A stretch of 64,000 nt of DNA from Halobacteriovoraceae bacterium. Its GTDB lineage: Bacteria > Bdellovibrionota > Bacteriovoracia > Bacteriovoracales > Bacteriovoracaceae. Each line of letters opens with the position of its first letter. The stretch's first letter is position 1. The position numbers and the translations under genes were made by a program. The notes under the pieces are model-generated. The model ran no database searches and was not told the DNA's origin. It saw only the letters and a program-made list of their open reading frames with translations. Location: positions 736,001-800,000 of the forward strand of contig CAVRCF010000001.1 in assembly GCA_963719505.1 (NCBI GenBank), given 5' to 3'. Of the stretch, positions 44,741 through 56,428 are shown piece by piece.

Positions 44741-47700
44741 TTAACTCAGTAAAAACTGGATATCGTTCTTTTTCAGCTCTTTGATAAAGCCCTCATTGGA
44801 CTCTAGCAGAGTATTATAAAGATCTCTTTTTGTATTTTGAAGAGCATGAACTTTCTCTTCAATGGTGTCCTTGGTGATAAGTCGGTAAGCAAAGACGGGA
44901 TTTTTTTGACCAATCCTGTGGATTCTATCAATGGCTTGAGCTTCAACCGCCGGATTCCACCATGGGTCTAAAATAATACAATAGCTGGCGTTGGTGAGAT
45001 TTAATCCCACACCTCCGGCTTTGATACTAATGAGAAAAGTTTTATGCTCAGATCTATTTTTAAATTCGTTGATGACCTTATCTCGGTCGCGGGTAGAGCC
45101 ATCGAGGTAAGAAGAGTTGTCTGCATCGAGGTTTAGCTCCTCTTTAACTAAGGCCAAAAGCTTTGTGAACTGGCTAAAGATAATCACCTTATTTCCGGAG
45201 TCGTGAATCTCACTGACAAGCTCTTTGAGAGTCTCCATCTTTGAGCTTTCAATTTTGGTAGCGTTATCCACAAGCTTTAAGTGACTTGCTGCTTGGCGAA
45301 GCTTGGTGAGAACTTGCAGGAAAATAAGTTTTGAAAACTTCTCTTCAGATTGTTTTTCTAGCTCCTCTCGGAGGGCCACGTGATAACTTAAATATTCTTT
45401 TTTCTCTTTTGCCGACTGCTCACAGTAGATGGTTTGAATAGTCTTTTCTGGAAGGTCTTTTAAGACAGTCTCTTTTGTTCTTCTGAGAATAAAAGGTCTC
45501 AAAAAGTTAAAGTTCTCGAGAATGGTGGGATCTTTAATTTTCTTAGCTTCAAAAAGTCCAGGAATCACAATATTAAAAATACTCATCATGTCTCCGGCGT
45601 GATTTTCAACAGGAGTTCCGGTAAGAGCGTATTTGTGTTTGGCCACAACCGCAGCACAAGCTTTGTGGGTGAGAGAGGTTGAGTTTTTAATCATCTGGGC
45701 TTCATCCAAGATGAGATAGTCAAATTGATAATCAAAATTCTCTTGTCTTTGTAAAAGCTGATAAGAAACCAAGAAAACATCATTGAGGTCAAAATCCATT
45801 TTGCCCAAATTCTTATTTCGCCAGTTAAAAACTGAAATCTCTTTGGCAAACAGAGCAAATTCACTTTCCCAGTTTCCTGTGAGTGACTTTGGACAGACGA
45901 TCAATATCTTGAGCCCTTTGTTGGCATTAAGCTTTCTTTGAAGGTGAGCGATTATCTGAATCGTTTTTCCAAGTCCCATATCATCGGCGAGGCAACCACC
46001 AAAGCGGCACCTCTCAAGAAAATCAAACCAGCCAAGGGCCAATCTTTGATAAGGACGAAGAGTGCCGTTAAAGTTTTTTTCTTCATAGATTTCTTTAATC
46101 TCTTTAAAGTTTTCAAGCTCAGCTTTTAAAAGTCTGATATTCTTTTGTGTTTTTAATTCTGGAAACTCATCCAGGATTAATGCCTTTGCTGGGTGCAAAG
46201 ATATAGAGTCTTTAGTAATGACAGCATGTTTTTGAATAAGTCTTATTTTTTCAATCCAGTCATCGGGAATGATTCCCATTTCACCGGAGCTGAGTTCAAT
46301 GGTATTTGATTTTAGATTTACTTTTTTGAGGATATCTCTAAAATTTATTTCTTTTTTTAAGCCATTAAAATCAAGCTTTGGATTGAGGTCGAGCCAATTG
46401 ATTCCACTTGTCACATCCATACTAAACGAGCTCGCACTTTTTAATTTTTGTTTTTTAAAGAAAACGGGAAGCTTAAATTCATCTGCATATTGCATAAACT
46501 TAAAAAGTTCGGAGCTTTCAAATAAGAACGTATTATCCGTAAACGTAAAAGACGGAAAAGCTTTTATAAATCTCTCAAGCGGTTCGTAGTTGAGTTCAAC
46601 TAAGTTATTATTATTAGGTCCATCAGGGACATAGATATAGCCTCTGATGTGATTTGAGTTATCTTCCCACTTTAAATAAAGCTCAAAATAGATATCAATG
46701 GTTTCAACCTTGAGGTTAAACTTATCACCGGTAAAAAGGTGATGAGGTATATTTTTGATCAGCATGGCCTGAAGTTCATTCCACTGTTCATTGCTCACCT
46801 CAAGACTTTTTTCATAAATCTCAATTAAGGTTGAATAGAGGTTATTATCGATAAGATCTTTATTCTCCACCTCATAAAATTCATCATACTTTAAAAGAAG
46901 ATTGTCATAGATCTCTCGATCAAAATCCTTGTAAGAGAATCTTTTATCATTGATCTCAATATAGGGGACAGCAGACTTTTGCAAAGAGTCCACTTCAATT
47001 TTAAAGCGAGCCTTTTCTGAATTAAATCTCAGATCTTTATCCTCGTCGACATCATAATAGCGATAAGATCTTTTGATCGTTCTTTTCGTTTTAATCATTT
47101 TCTTAAAAAGGAGTCTGTTTTGATGAAGATAGAAGTCGCCGTTATGAAAACTTGATGAATTTTTAGATTGGGAATATTCCCACCTGCCAAAAGCACACAG
47201 CTGGTTGAGAATCTCTTGATCCAGAGCATCTGGAAGCATGCGAATAAGTTCAGGCTCTACTTTTACATTTTTAATTTTTCCAAGACGACCAGAGGCAAGT
47301 CTTGATTGACACTGAAGGGAAAACTCAACCTTAACTCCTGTATAGTCTTCATAAAAATCTATAATATACCAGATGAGTTCGGGGGCATTTGTTTTGACTT
47401 CTTTTTCACTGTAGAAAAGTTCGGGGGTCTCAATATCTTCTTTTCTTCTTTTTTGCTCGTAGATAAAACTTTCCATGATTTGTTCAAACTCATTGGATGG
47501 CTTATCTTCATGTTTTATAGGTTTAGGATTAATAAAGGCATTGTTAACAAATTCGTAGTCGCTATTCCAGTCATCAAAAAACATACCCGTCTCTTTTAAG
47601 ATGACAGCTGCGATATGCTTACACTGACCATTTGAGATAAAGGCCATGCAAGAACAAAAACCCAAAATTTCTTCATTAAGGGCCGACTTTTGAAGACTCA

Positions 47701-47833
47701 CCTGATAGGTGGTTGATCCTTTAACAGTAGCTTTGAGTCTATTTTTAGTAGAGTCTACAAGATTGATTTTATCCAAATAGTCTTGGGCTTTTTCAAATTG
47801 TATTTTATCAATATTGTAGAGAAATCTTGGCAT
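44741..47833 (-). CDS. SWIM zinc finger + SNF2-family helicase/ATPase
   Basis: CSC...CKH SWIM; LADDMGLGKT, DEAQ, TGTPVEN, GLNLT, QAIDRIHRIGQ. Confidence 0.93.
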   Translation of the reverse strand: MPRFLYNIDKIQFEKAQDYLDKINLVDSTKNRLKATVKGSTTYQVSLQKSALNEEILGFCSCMAFISNGQCKHIAAVILKETGMFFDDWNSDYEFVNNAFINPKPIKHEDKPSNEFEQIMESFIYEQKRRKEDIETPELFYSEKEVKTNAPELIWYIIDFYEDYTGVKVEFSLQCQSRLASGRLGKIKNVKVEPELIRMLPDALDQEILNQLCAFGRWEYSQSKNSSSFHNGDFYLHQNRLLFKKMIKTKRTIKRSYRYYDVDEDKDLRFNSEKARFKIEVDSLQKSAVPYIEINDKRFSYKDFDREIYDNLLLKYDEFYEVENKDLIDNNLYSTLIEIYEKSLEVSNEQWNELQAMLIKNIPHHLFTGDKFNLKVETIDIYFELYLKWEDNSNHIRGYIYVPDGPNNNNLVELNYEPLERFIKAFPSFTFTDNTFLFESSELFKFMQYADEFKLPVFFKKQKLKSASSFSMDVTSGINWLDLNPKLDFNGLKKEINFRDILKKVNLKSNTIELSSGEMGIIPDDWIEKIRLIQKHAVITKDSISLHPAKALILDEFPELKTQKNIRLLKAELENFKEIKEIYEEKNFNGTLRPYQRLALGWFDFLERCRFGGCLADDMGLGKTIQIIAHLQRKLNANKGLKILIVCPKSLTGNWESEFALFAKEISVFNWRNKNLGKMDFDLNDVFLVSYQLLQRQENFDYQFDYLILDEAQMIKNSTSLTHKACAAVVAKHKYALTGTPVENHAGDMMSIFNIVIPGLFEAKKIKDPTILENFNFLRPFILRRTKETVLKDLPEKTIQTIYCEQSAKEKKEYLSYHVALREELEKQSEEKFSKLIFLQVLTKLRQAASHLKLVDNATKIESSKMETLKELVSEIHDSGNKVIIFSQFTKLLALVKEELNLDADNSSYLDGSTRDRDKVINEFKNRSEHKTFLISIKAGGVGLNLTNASYCIILDPWWNPAVEAQAIDRIHRIGQKNPVFAYRLITKDTIEEKVHALQNTKRDLYNTLLESNEGFIKELKKNDIQFLLS

Positions 47834-47841
47834 GGGGTACT

Positions 47842-48375
47842 CTACAAAATGATTTCTGGGCTTGGAAGTTTCAGTGCGTCAATATGTCTAACCTTTTTGA
47901 TATCACTTTTAGACACGGGCTTATTAAGCCAGTGAAGTTTATACTCATCAGGCATGCCAAACTTTTCGTGGATAGGGGCTTTCATGGATTTTCCATGAAC
48001 GAGGTGGTGCAAAGTACTATAGGGATAGTGCTCAATTTTTTTGACAAGCTTTGCCCTTGTAGGATTTTGGTAGATATATCTGTAGCAGTGAAGAAGATAG
48101 GTTTTTGAAGCAATGGACTGAATCTTGAGATTTTGAAAGACGCCCGGGTTGAGAAAAGAGATAAACTTCGAAACCTTCTTTGAATGAGTTTTTAAAAGAA
48201 GATGGTAATGATTATTCATTAGGACAAAACAGATAATATCCCCACCGTGGATTCTATGAGCGAGAGACAGACCAAAGAGAAGTTCATTCCACATTTTATC
48301 CATGGGTTTTTTAAACCATCTTTGGTCAATTGTTTTTGCTGTAATATGAAGTGTAAGTTTTTGTAATTGCGCCAT
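47842..48375 (-). CDS. REP-associated tyrosine transposase-like HUH nuclease (Y1/RAYT)
   Basis: FVLMNNHYHLL HUH motif; catalytic YIYQNP; YPYST. Confidence 0.8.
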   Translation of the reverse strand: MAQLQKLTLHITAKTIDQRWFKKPMDKMWNELLFGLSLAHRIHGGDIICFVLMNNHYHLLLKTHSKKVSKFISFLNPGVFQNLKIQSIASKTYLLHCYRYIYQNPTRAKLVKKIEHYPYSTLHHLVHGKSMKAPIHEKFGMPDEYKLHWLNKPVSKSDIKKVRHIDALKLPSPEIIL

Positions 48376-48468
48376 TTTTAAAAAGTCCTTTATTTCAATC
48401 AGTAAAATATGCTATTCTTTTCATGCACCAAAAGGGTGGGGATGTGCTTCTAACACACCCCCCTTGGT

Positions 48469-48549
48469 TCACTTATATAGCTGGTAAGTCGCTACAATTA
48501 GCTGACAAACTGCTGCTATAAAAGAGAACACCCTAATGATGTCTTCCAT
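48469..48549 (-). CDS. 26-aa hydrophobic peptide, candidate type I toxin (not in the ORF track)
   Basis: MEDIIRVFSFIAAVCQLIVATYQLYK; AAAGG RBS; structured leader and 3' hairpin. Confidence 0.6.
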   Translation of the reverse strand: MEDIIRVFSFIAAVCQLIVATYQLYK

Positions 48550-48595
48550 AACAAAACCTTTTGGCAAAGGCGCCCTTCATTGGGCGTCATGGAAG

Positions 48596-48661
48596 CTCCT
48601 TGCTTTCTATGCAAGCTCTCAACGACCTAAAAAACTCTAAAGGTTTGAAATGATTCTATTT
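48596..48661. repeat. 66-bp imperfect direct repeat, copy A
   Basis: 59/66 identical to 49332-49397 by hand alignment. Confidence 0.9.
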
Positions 48662-48709
48662 AAAAGATGCTAAACGGATTTTTTTGTGGGGAGGAGGAGA
48701 GTATAAAGA

Positions 48710-49012
48710 TTAAGCGACGATGCTAACTTTTCCACTTACGCCAGCTTTAGTGAGTTGGTCTTGTAGGGCGTACTTGGCAAAAGTTTTTTCCGGCATACCA
48801 ATAAGCCTTGCAAAGCTTACGGCTCTTTCTACACTGACAAGCTTTCTCCCTTTTTCTATATTACATAGATCCTGTTTTGAAATTTGCAGTCTTTCAGCAA
48901 AATCTGTCTGAGTGATTTCATTGGCAATCCTATAAGAGTGAAGCATTTCACCAAAAGAGACTTGGCCGCTTTGTTGTCTTATGGCTGACTTTGCCCTATT
49001 TTTTGTACTCAT
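48710..49012 (-). CDS. higA: HigA-like XRE HTH antitoxin
   Basis: ITQTDFAERLQISKQDLCNIEKG HTH. Lies downstream of, and overlaps, the toxin gene; probable start ATG 49012. Confidence 0.8.
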   Translation of the reverse strand: MSTKNRAKSAIRQQSGQVSFGEMLHSYRIANEITQTDFAERLQISKQDLCNIEKGRKLVSVERAVSFARLIGMPEKTFAKYALQDQLTKAGVSGKVSIVA

Positions 49013-49283
49013 GATGATTAATCTCCAGAACCTCAATGAGTAACTCATGGGTTTTCTCGTTTAGCTGGTAGATGATTCTCCAGCTTCTAGATAGGGAGCA
49101 GGAGCGCTGTCCTATTCTACTACCTTTGAGACTATGGTCTCTAAAACCTTTAATTTGTTGCATTTTTTTAAAGCCATCGGTTTCTATAATTTCCACCCAT
49201 AAATCAAATTGGATGAGAATATACCTTGGTATTTTGGATAAGTTTTTTTGAGCTTTTTTTGTCAGTAAAACTTTATATTCCAT
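48996..49283 (-). CDS. higB: RelE/HigB-family mRNA interferase toxin
   Basis: AQKNLSK, DHSLKG.R.G.RS.SL...WRIIY; toxin-first gene order. Confidence 0.82.
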   Translation of the reverse strand: MEYKVLLTKKAQKNLSKIPRYILIQFDLWVEIIETDGFKKMQQIKGFRDHSLKGSRIGQRSCSLSRSWRIIYQLNEKTHELLIEVLEINHHEYKK

Positions 49284-49295
49284 AAAACCTTTTTA

Positions 49296-49316
49296 AGTAT
49301 ACCATAAAGGTGTACT
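49296..49316. promoter_or_regulatory. Probable higBA operator palindrome overlapping an extended -10
   Basis: AGTATACC-N5-GGTGTACT inverted repeat; the minus strand reads TGgTATACT. Confidence 0.55.
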
Positions 49317-49331
49317 CTTGTATAGAGCCCA

Positions 49332-49397
49332 CTCCTTGGGTTCTATGCAAGGTCTTAGCGATCTAAAAAATTCTAAAGGTTTGAAATGATTCTATTT
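49332..49397. repeat. 66-bp imperfect direct repeat, copy B
   Basis: Matches 48596-48661; overlaps the stop codon of the GT4 gene. Confidence 0.9.
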
Positions 49398-50519
49398 TAT
49401 AAAAGGAACAATGATTCTTTCAAAAAGATCGGGAAGTTTTGATTCAAAAACGGCACTTGCCGATTGAGCATTTTGTCTTGAGACCTCTGCTCTTAAATCC
49501 GCATCACTGAGAAGGGTTTGCATCAGCTGCGCCAGCTCGTGATCATTTTCTCCAGAGTAGATAAAGTTTTTTGACTTTCCCTCTAAAAGTTCGCTCGCCC
49601 CAACCCAGTTGGTTGTTATGACAGGAGCCCCGCAAGCCATGGCTTCGGCCACGACGCGGCCAAATTCTTCAATCCTTGCTGGTAAAACAAAAATATCTAG
49701 AGCGTTAAAATACTCTTCCACATGATGAATAACGGGCAGAAGCTTAACTCTATTTTTATAGGGACTTTGATCTAAGATGCTTTGAAATTCAGCTGGAAGC
49801 GTGTCTTTTCCCACGAAAACAAAATGACATTTTCGAGCGATCTCTTTTGGAAGAAGATTGATGGCGTTAAAAAATCTGTCCACTCCGCGCTTTTTAAAAT
49901 TTCCAGAAGTAATAAGACCGACTAAAAATTCATCCTCTTCCACTCCTAGCTGCTCTCTTTTATTATCGCGAATCTCTTTTGAGAGAACTTGAAATTGAGT
50001 CTCATCCACAGCGGGATAAATCACTGAGATATCTTTTTCCGGAATTTCAAATCTTTTTATCATCTCATTTTTCACAAGCTTGGAGTTGGCAATAAGATGC
50101 TTAAACTTTTGATTTTTAAAGATGGGGGTATGAATCTTGTACATTTCATCTTCTCTTGAAAGTACCGTCACCATGAACTTTTTCACTGAAGTGAGATGCA
50201 CACAATTGTGAACAAAGTGAATATCTGGATTTTGATAATCTCCGTGACCGATCACAAGGTTGGGCTTTAGCTTCTTGGCAAGATCTCGAGTTTGATTTGA
50301 AAACTGCAGACGCCTTTTAAACTTCTTTTGCCAAGGCCATCTAAAGGATTTATGGCTAGTTGCGCCACTGGCCTTAATATCACCCACATTTGGGTCCTCT
50401 GAGATAGTATGCACTTCATATCCAGCTGACTTAAAATACTTTATTTCCTCATGCACACTTCTAGTAGCACCGGAATAAGTTTTGGCCAAATTTTGCTTTG
50501 AAATGAGTATTTTCTTCAT
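49392..50519 (-). CDS. Glycosyltransferase family 4
   Basis: GNFKKRG; EEFGRVVAEAMACG.PVI. Confidence 0.92.
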   Translation of the reverse strand: MKKILISKQNLAKTYSGATRSVHEEIKYFKSAGYEVHTISEDPNVGDIKASGATSHKSFRWPWQKKFKRRLQFSNQTRDLAKKLKPNLVIGHGDYQNPDIHFVHNCVHLTSVKKFMVTVLSREDEMYKIHTPIFKNQKFKHLIANSKLVKNEMIKRFEIPEKDISVIYPAVDETQFQVLSKEIRDNKREQLGVEEDEFLVGLITSGNFKKRGVDRFFNAINLLPKEIARKCHFVFVGKDTLPAEFQSILDQSPYKNRVKLLPVIHHVEEYFNALDIFVLPARIEEFGRVVAEAMACGAPVITTNWVGASELLEGKSKNFIYSGENDHELAQLMQTLLSDADLRAEVSRQNAQSASAVFESKLPDLFERIIVPFIK

Positions 50520-55262: not shown

Positions 55263-55628
55263 ATGGAAAGAAAAAGAAGAAGATTTACCGAAGATCAAAA
55301 AATCCAAATTCTACAGGAACATCGTTCAAAAGGTGTTCCAATTTCAGTTTTAGCACGAGTCCATGATATAAATGCAGTAACTTTATACCAATGGAAAAGA
55401 GCTATGAAAGACAAACCTGATACTAATATCGATGTTGCTGACCTTTTGAAACAAATTGATCAACTTAAAAAAGACAAAGATAAACTACTCAAGAAAGTTG
55501 GTGAATCTACCCTCAGAGAAGAGGTCGCTCAGGATATCATCGATTTTTATAAAAAAAAGATCTTGGAACAGGAGTTGATCGAGCAAAAGAATTCATCAAA
55601 CTCAAAAAGAAAGGATCAAAAAAAATGA
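55263..55628 (+). CDS. IS3 transposase OrfA (HTH)
   Basis: RRRFTEDQK...LARVHDI...TLYQWK; A8G slippery site at 55551-55559. Confidence 0.9.
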   Translation: MERKRRRFTEDQKIQILQEHRSKGVPISVLARVHDINAVTLYQWKRAMKDKPDTNIDVADLLKQIDQLKKDKDKLLKKVGESTLREEVAQDIIDFYKKKILEQELIEQKNSSNSKRKDQKK

Positions 55629-56428
55629 TCTGTGAAATGTTTGGAGTCCACTCAAAATCAATTTATAAAACGACTAGCTCAAAGAAATTTTACTTTAAAG
55701 CTGAAGATGGAGAAATACTAAGCCAGATTAGGTCAATTGTTTCCTTACGACCAACTTATGGTTATAAACGAGTTACGGCCATGGTCAATCGTCTTCGACT
55801 TACTCTGGGGCATCCAAGGCTTAATAAGAAGCGTATCTACAGGATCATGAGAGTGAATGGACTTCTTCTTCCAAAGTCTGCTGTGACGAGAACTCACACT
55901 CCAACTGGCAAAGTAATGACTCTGCATTCAAATACAAGGTGGTGCAGTGATTGTTTTGAGATTAAGTGCTTTAACGGAGAAAAAGTTTTTGTTTCTTTTG
56001 TTTTAGATACATGTGACAGAGAGGTTCTCTCATTTGTAGCTTCAAAATCACCACTGCTTGCGACTGATATTGAGAGTCTGATGCTGAAAGCAGTTAAATA
56101 CAGGTTTAAAGATTACAAAACTTTGAGAACGATAGAATTTTTATCGGATAGAGGAAGTATTTATCGAGCCCATTCTGTTAAGAATTTGGCGAACCATCTT
56201 GGTTTAAAAAGCTGTTATACAGCTGCCTATAGCCCAGAATCAAATGGAATGAGTGAAGCTTTTGTGAAAACGATCAAGCGAGACTATGTCTACAACAGCG
56301 ACTGTTACAGTGCGGATGTAGTGCTGAAGATGATCAAGGGTTGGATGAAAGATTATAATGAAATAGCACCTCATTCAGGGCTTGGCATGTTGAGCCCGAA
56401 AGAGTATTTATTAGAAAATCAAAGGTAG
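55553..56428 (+). CDS. IS3 transposase OrfB (DDE), probably reached by -1 frameshift
   Basis: YGYKR, WCSD, SDRGS.Y, NGMSE. The -1 frame is open from 55553 (first ATG 55625). Confidence 0.9.
   Translation, partial: KKDLGTGVDRAKEFIKLKKKGSKKMICEMFGVHSKSIYKTTSSKKFYFKAEDGEILSQIRSIVSLRPTYGYKRVTAMVNRLRLTLGHPRLNKKRIYRIMRVNGLLLPKSAVTRTHTPTGKVMTLHSNTRWCSDCFEIKCFNGEKVFVSFVLDTCDREVLSFVASKSPLLATDIESLMLKAVKYRFKDYKTLRTIEFLSDRGSIYRAHSVKNLANHLGLKSCYTAAYSPESNGMSEAFVKTIKRDYVYNSDCYSADVVLKMIKGWMKDYNEIAPHSGLGMLSPKEYLLENQR

Follow-up and report, generated by a model that had tools for sequence, protein, structure and literature searches.

What kind of event leaves a toxin-antitoxin (TA) module between two copies of a direct repeat, with a strong hairpin at the edge of one copy and a gene for a HUH/Y1 (RAYT-like) protein close by? 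The question is raised by a locus of a Halobacteriovoraceae bacterium (GenBank assembly GCA_963719505.1, contig CAVRCF010000001.1). The window, as we call the whole stretch of DNA that was analysed, covers 64,000 nucleotides of this contig (forward-strand positions 736,001 to 800,000), and all coordinates below count from its first letter. A preliminary description of the window took the repeats, here named R, and their hairpins for recombination or repetitive extragenic palindromic (REP)-like sites through which TA cassettes are inserted or excised. We consider it rather more probable that the R copies are the footprint of an old one-off duplication linked to the insertion of the TA module, and that they are not recombinase recognition sites.

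Read along the minus strand, which encodes all the genes discussed, the order at the locus is a GT4 glycosyltransferase gene (GT), repeat copy B, the toxin gene, the antitoxin gene, a 43-nt tail, repeat copy A, a small gene that we call X, the HUH/Y1 gene and a SWIM/SNF2 helicase gene.

A probable spacer duplication around a TA module

The assembly searched (G000) comprises 3.69 Mb in 5 contigs and is 83.5% complete. A repeat search paired positions 48596-48684 with 49332-49420 at a start-to-start spacing of 736 nt. The well-matched core of this family, 48596-48661 against 49332-49397, is identical at 59 of 66 positions, so that the spacing and the identity first reported were re-measured exactly. 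Gapped alignment places copy A at 48596-48666 and copy B at 49332-49405, with 64 of 71 aligned bases identical and one 3-nt indel; the longest perfect run common to both is 26 nt. BLAST of R against its own assembly found two copies only (E = 1e-34 and 5.7e-19), and the second of these values, for the match of copy B to copy A, is far beyond chance. A mismatch-tolerant scan of the genome gave two matches for R and one for each of the hairpin sequences treated below. The remaining BLAST matches, of 15-26 nt, were rejected as chance; the five 26-nt ones are inside a multi-copy transposase gene. A metagenome scan with a 20-mer from the identical R core returned four loci, all of them chance matches (20-26 nt) with no wider similarity. 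The limit of two copies in the 3.69-Mb assembly turns the question away from the sites first proposed and towards an old one-off duplication.

Copy B covers the stop codon of GT (49392-50519) and the last 11 GT coding bases, and its 5′ end is therefore the native join to GT. Copy A holds a vestige of the same GT 3′ end (CTTTT---AAATAG), though no GT gene adjoins it. At its other end (48596), copy A stops exactly at the conserved 5′ end of X. Homology to X in other genomes starts at this same position in four of eight BLAST matches, the other four beginning 6-15 nt further upstream, and the last 15 nt of copy A (ATAGAAAGCAAGGAG) align with the upstream flanks of X elsewhere, for example GTAGAAAGCATGCAG. 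This coincidence marks the 3′ end of copy A as the native join to X. With one end in the last GT codons and the other at the conserved start of X, R corresponds to the whole GT-X spacer. Judged from these alignments, R is that spacer duplicated, the place where the promoter of X should be, now present in two copies, and it is predicted to have promoter activity. That each copy lies upstream, on the minus strand, of a toxin module had been seen correctly: copy B precedes the gene for a RelE/ParE toxin, and copy A directly precedes the toxin-like open reading frame (ORF) of X. The alternative offered in the preliminary description, a duplicated regulatory element, came close to the present finding, in that R is the spacer directly upstream of the X start.

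Between the spacer copies is a 665-bp segment whose TA module is a self-contained accessory unit with its own promoter and operator. The toxin (48996-49283, 95 aa, RelE/ParE superfamily) is encoded by the first gene of the pair, a HigB-like position. It scores 30.9 bits against Pfam ParE_toxin (cut-off 23) and 37.8 bits against NCBIfam RelE_StbE (cut-off 27.9), and a PDB sequence search with it gave no match. The antitoxin (48710-49012, 100 aa), a HigA-like protein of the XRE helix-turn-helix (HTH) type whose gene overlaps the toxin gene by 17 nt, matches HTH_31 (37.2 bits) and HTH_3 (29.9 bits), both above the cut-offs. Homologous pairs with 68-69% nucleotide identity occur in two other genera (G008 and G022), in unrelated contexts and with no R-like repeat; a DNA search of three congeners did not find the module. 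The three-way alignment of the modules extends from approximately 8 nt beyond copy B to the antitoxin stop codon. Its conserved upstream block consists of TTGACA, AGTACACC-N5-GGTATACT and TATACT, and a promoter scan calls the TA promoter of G000 as TATACA-17-TATACT (49296-49324), with copy B ending 8 nt ahead of it. The inverted repeat within this promoter (49296-49316), which is kept before the G008 and G022 modules, is likely the operator. The 43-nt tail between the antitoxin stop codon and copy A (48667-48709) is pyrimidine-rich (…CTCCTCCTCCCCAC A7…) and has no counterpart in X or beside the homologous TA modules. Where a TA array had been described, we thus find one type II pair and one candidate small-toxin gene only. 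The description of a TA cassette holds as far as a TA module bracketed by repeats was inserted, and is not supported for cassette mobility through recombination sites.

Gene X and its upstream region

X (48430-48595) consists of a leader (48550-48595), an ORF (48469-48549, MEDIIRVFSFIAAVCQLIVATYQLYK) that here encodes a hydrophobic peptide of 26 aa, and a terminator (48430-48463). When 2.7 kb of the locus was searched against 40 relatives, the recurrent part was approximately 48514-48610, just beyond the repeat, and it often recurred several times per genome. Copies of X have in common a structured leader, an ORF of 22-27 aa starting ME[DE]xxRVL, and a terminator. The leader takes the form CTTCCRTGAC - G+C hairpin - CCTTT...AAAGG - GTYATGGAAGA. 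In its fold, CTTCCATGAC is the partner of GTTATGGAAG, which lies at the start codon; besides the G+C hairpin there is a second one, CCTTT/AAAGG, that covers the ribosome-binding site.

A pattern scan for X, using one genome per species, returned 53 loci. Seven of these (L038, L044, L048, L050, L076, L077 and L088) were set aside as chance matches, on the grounds of titles naming other phyla, a missing hairpin and long unrelated ORFs, leaving 46 loci with 48 matches. The kept loci are titled Bacteriovoracaceae, Halobacteriovoraceae, Halobacteriovorax, Peredibacter, Oligoflexia or Bdellovibrionales. The 22-27 aa ORF is retained in 43 of the 48 matches, and its codon variation, by eye, is mostly at third positions. 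The inner hairpin covaries, with double changes in 18, 4 and 9 of 47 alignment rows at three pairs, and the consensus structure of these 47 rows has the 5′ end paired with the start-codon region. Nothing can be concluded from the fact that the outer stem and CCTTT do not vary among the scanned loci, because the search pattern required both; they are seen also in the eight copies found by BLAST. The X mRNA of G000 folds at -76 kcal/mol (z = -6.14), a value that none of 200 shuffles reached. A covariance model made from the alignment finds a single X in G000 (85.8 bits); of 121 genomes that sample the order, 22 have X by this model, with 1-10 copies each.

The X family loci in our numbering are L024-L032 and L037-L089. 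One of them, L042, is on a contig titled as a Flavobacteriaceae metagenome-assembled genome. It is a typical X with the leader and a 26-aa peptide, and was retained in the set because it shows every feature of X; the contig is probably a mis-binned one from Bacteriovoracaceae, or else the copy was transferred. The copy closest to that of the window (74% over 210 nt) is found in the congener G003 (L024, positions 1402-1720), between UDPGP-like and GNAT genes. The similarity there runs past the terminator into what is the ribosome-binding region of the HUH gene in our window, and the HUH and SNF2 genes are missing, which suggests a deletion or rearrangement at the G003 locus.

Rfam gives nothing at gathering score in the window, and only noise (E >= 0.65) in 48300-49450. 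Comparison of X with Pfam and NCBIfam gave no family, the best matches being TisB (E = 0.3-1.4) and KdpF (0.06), and a literature search found no paper on X, nor on type I toxins in Bdellovibrio-like bacteria. By analogy with hok, AapA1 and TisB, X is a candidate type I toxin-like gene. We put forward tentatively, as quite possible, that it represents a new type I-like toxin family specific to the predatory Bacteriovoracaceae and their allies; should X prove to be a type I toxin, no such family would have been described before from these predatory bacteria. X, which came to light when the repeat was checked, is in any event a conserved family with a covarying three-stem leader and no entry in Rfam, Pfam or NCBIfam; Bacteriovoracaceae, Halobacteriovoraceae and Peredibacter have it in multiple copies and with a patchy distribution.

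The upstream regions of 41 non-redundant X loci were compared after anchoring on CTTCC. Their consensus has a TAnAAA box at -14..-9 and a T at -1. Copy A carries a TAGAAA box at -14..-9 together with TTTCAA-N30-TTGCA, and the subgroup that includes G000 shares TTTCAA-N30-32-TTGCA-N12-15/20-21-CTTCC, as read from the listed upstream sequences. These upstream words are retained in both R copies. Approximately 20 of 43 X loci (for example L037, L041, L043, L056 and L083) have a palindrome TTTCA-N4-6-TGAAA at a fixed distance, -82 to -64 from CTTCC; another group, which includes the window, has TTTCAA approximately 57 nt and TTGCA approximately 20 nt upstream of CTTCC. The elements of either group could be bound by some regulator. 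A sigma-54 reading of TTGCA was rejected, as the loci checked by eye have no GG at the -24 position.

The hairpins and the HUH/Y1 gene

Hairpin B (49317-49351) has 15 pairs on the plus strand, including two G-T pairs, just as first described, and 13 Watson-Crick pairs on the minus strand, where its loop is AGGAG. It is the best ungapped hairpin of the window, the runner-up having 12 pairs. The 91-nt region around it, folded as single-stranded DNA (ssDNA), gave z = -3.21 for the plus strand (matched by 2 of 200 shuffles) and -2.19 for the minus strand. Hairpins of at least 15 pairs turn up in 6 of 20 Markov-shuffled windows, so the size of hairpin B is not decisive and it is the position that makes it significant. 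The end of repeat B forms the left arm. The right arm is made of TGGGCTCTAT, a 9/10 inverted copy of the repeat end, and of ACAAG from the TA -35 region; TGGGCTCTAT is 10 nt of otherwise unexplained junction sequence. We infer that hairpin B is a palindrome made at the insertion junction. Among mechanisms that make or sharpen palindromes are fold-back synthesis and template-switch mutation, and hairpin B may have originated by the former, or may be a quasi-palindrome sharpened by the latter.

Hairpin A, claimed for the end of repeat A against the conserved X 5′ end (48588-48612), is weak. It does not appear in minimum-energy folds (z = -1.87 for the plus strand, -0.71 for the minus strand), and when the upstream 25 nt were shuffled in a duplex test, the X 5′ end was paired at least as well by 167 of 200 sequences. 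One of its arms is the conserved X 5′ end, whose own partner is at the start codon. Pairing between the upstream region and the X 5′ end was also considered as a feature of the family and rejected, since the mean z was +0.35 and only 2 of 43 X loci fell below -1.64. Hairpin A is at chance level, a chance pairing with the conserved X 5′ end.

The HUH/Y1 gene (47842-48375, 177 aa) is approximately 220 bp from copy A. What had been called a RAYT is a divergent HUH/Y1 protein: NCBIfam REP_Tyr_transpos matches its C-terminal 33 residues only, at 36.9 bits against a cut-off of 80, and Pfam Y1_Tnp gives E = 0.036. PF01797 is present in 51 of 68 homologues of the protein, which has, by eye, the motifs NHYHLLL and YRYIYQNP. 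Its closer homologues are P0002 (84% aa identity) and P0003 (76%), and a PDB sequence search gave no match. The gene is single-copy in the genome and has no flanking palindromes; the X terminator lies on its 5′ side, and its stop codon is 9 nt upstream of the start of the SNF2 gene (44741-47833). In the congener G002 (L096) the HUH gene is again directly before the SNF2 gene (60% aa identity), the upstream neighbour is an unrelated divergent gene, and R, X, TA and GT are absent there. The HUH/Y1 protein looks like a domesticated one that works with the SWIM/SNF2 helicase. Nothing links it to the repeat.

Other recombination machinery was sought in the window and in the genome. A Pfam scan of the 59 window ORFs of at least 80 aa found no integrase or tyrosine recombinase, and only an IS3-type DDE pair in addition to the Y1-like protein. 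No REP-like family was found in the genome, where the commonest 14-mers (at most 23 copies) are binding-site repeats at the ends of one insertion sequence (IS). This IS, of approximately 1.26 kb, has approximately eight genome copies (G000 C1:9995-11255 and seven other places), with repeated ATAGGACATAATCG words at both ends. General ssDNA folding, which includes no dedicated attC model, gave no attC-type pairing across the repeat in either R copy, and by eye the two copies have no GTTRRRY/RYYYAAC core in common. The wider window is a surface-polysaccharide gene cluster, to which GT belongs, with GT2, MBOAT and AlgX-like genes and an ABC exporter; the IS3-type element lies within this cluster at 55263-56428.

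Origin of the arrangement and known systems

The following history would fit the locus. The ancestral minus-strand order would have been GT, a spacer R of approximately 71 bp, and X, with R holding whatever promoter and control sites X has. The 665-bp TA segment would have been inserted once, leaving the whole spacer on both sides in the order GT-R(B)-TA-R(A)-X, so that copy B keeps the native GT join and copy A the native X join. After this presumed single event the copies would have drifted to approximately 90% identity. Copy A would drive X today, and copy B would be a spare X control region before the TA promoter, which adds read-in transcription or just decays. Recombination between the R copies could occasionally delete the module, a loss that the TA pair would tend to penalise.

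Several points weigh against this history. The genomes examined include no empty site (GT-R-X), so the ancestral order rests on the two native joins only, and none of the three congeners (G001-G003) has an orthologue of GT. A flanking duplication of 71 bp far exceeds ordinary transposon target duplications, and we name no mechanism for it. The end of the repeat is the presumed start site of X, an odd coincidence for a random break. A generic sigma-70 scan called no promoter ending at the X start, and no convincing -35 element was seen. Finally, hairpin B is unusually good and has derived changes on both arms: AAGC, found in copy A and in related X flanks, is ACCC in copy B, and the -35 element TTGACA of the homologous TA modules is TATACA here, each change raising the pairing. 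Selection for some function could account for this.

An origin from tandem X genes would explain why copy B ends exactly at an X start position. The ancestor would then have been R-X1-R-X2, with the TA module replacing the body of X1 and copy B surviving as the X1 upstream region. Tandem X pairs are known, in L065 with a period of 306 nt and the upstream region included, and in L070 with a period of 315 nt, where, however, only the transcribed part is repeated. No remains of X1 are seen: the covariance model finds no X after copy B (2.8 bits, E = 4.7), and neither the 48 nt that follow copy B nor the 46 nt ahead of copy A resemble X more than shuffles do (366 and 894 of 1000, respectively, score equally). 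We regard this origin as unlikely, and are similarly doubtful that the duplicate was selected as a regulatory one, with copy B putting the TA genes under X-type control and hairpin B acting as an RNA or DNA element with its AGGAG loop. Both copies contain TTTCAA, TTGCATAGAA and CAAGGAG and share the 26-nt identical run, and both form a 5-bp local stem by shifted pairing, CTTGC/GCAAG in A and CCTTG/CAAGG in B; the fold of hairpin B (z = -3.2) and the apparently derived changes that raise its pairing point the same way. Yet with only 7 differences in 66 nt no significance attaches to shared words, a conserved promoter and operator already serve the TA module, and transcription from an X-type promoter, expected to start where copy B ends, would leave the left arm of hairpin B untranscribed.

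There is less still to recommend the repeats as recombination sites, whether the repeats and hairpins are taken as used by a HUH/Y1, integron or Xer recombinase or as decayed attL/attR, with an excisable unit of 736 bp. This reading is invited by direct repeats that enclose a TA module, by the strong hairpin at the edge of one of them and by a nearby HUH/Y1 gene, and TA modules bracketed by such sites are known elsewhere, in integron cassettes and in Acinetobacter pdif modules. Against it stand the two lone copies of R, hairpin sequences that are unique in a genome with no REP family, a hairpin A at chance level, a single-copy HUH gene that is paired with SNF2 in G002 where R, X and TA are missing, the lack of a tyrosine recombinase among the 59 ORFs, the lack of attC-like self-folding and of a common core in R, and the homologous TA modules of G008 and G022, which have no such repeats. 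We think it very improbable, and the sites first proposed are not supported by this comparison. Least of all do we expect that the 71-bp duplication, with its end exactly at a transcription start, and the palindromic junction are the footprint of an unrecognised route that places promoter-bearing TA modules at small-toxin promoters, possibly via ssDNA hairpins and the neighbouring HUH enzyme, with the 736-bp unit still excisable.

Taken as the footprint of one insertion, the locus shows cleanly, with both junctions readable, an accessory TA module that entered a surface-polysaccharide cluster, and the unusually long flanking duplication and the palindromic junction may inform how TA modules get in. 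As a recombination system, it adds little on HUH enzymes or cassette mobility.

The arrangement resembles a target-site duplication, in that two direct copies of the target bracket a self-contained module and each keeps one native join. Ordinary transposases leave duplications of 2-15 bp, whereas here the copies span 71-74 bp, no transposase ends were found, and one junction has a 15-bp palindrome. REPs are short palindromes with tens to hundreds of copies that flank a RAYT gene; our locus has a HUH/Y1-type gene nearby and a hairpin-forming sequence at a repeat edge, but the repeat is a non-palindromic 66-nt sequence in two copies, each hairpin occurs once, and the neighbours of the HUH gene are a terminator and SNF2. 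Like integron TA cassettes and Acinetobacter pdif modules, in which TA genes are bracketed by recombination sites, it has a small TA module with its own promoter between similar sequences approximately 0.7 kb apart; unlike them, it is a single 'cassette', and the window has no integrase, attC-like self-pairing, core motifs or dif-like 11-6-11 site. IS200/IS605 elements have similar subterminal hairpins and no direct repeats, whereas here there are direct repeats, hairpin A is at chance level and hairpin B is unique.

The TA pair and the candidate toxin gene X can be placed more closely. The TA pair differs from HigBA in that the toxin matches RelE/StbE and ParE models and not HigB, and that the antitoxin scores 24.2 bits against the HigA model, below the cut-off of 47.7. 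It agrees with HigBA in having the toxin gene first, a toxin of the RelE/ParE fold family, an XRE-HTH antitoxin, a gene overlap and a palindromic operator in the promoter. Type I systems with self-occluding toxin mRNAs include hok/Sok, AapA1/IsoA1, TisB/IstR-1 and Ibs/Sib. X has no sequence match to a known family (TisB E = 0.3-1.4; no Rfam match), and no conserved antisense promoter was recognised near it. It is like these toxins in its hydrophobic peptide of 22-27 aa, its own terminator, its multi-copy, patchy distribution, and a leader whose 5′ end pairs with the start codon and which conceals the ribosome-binding site.

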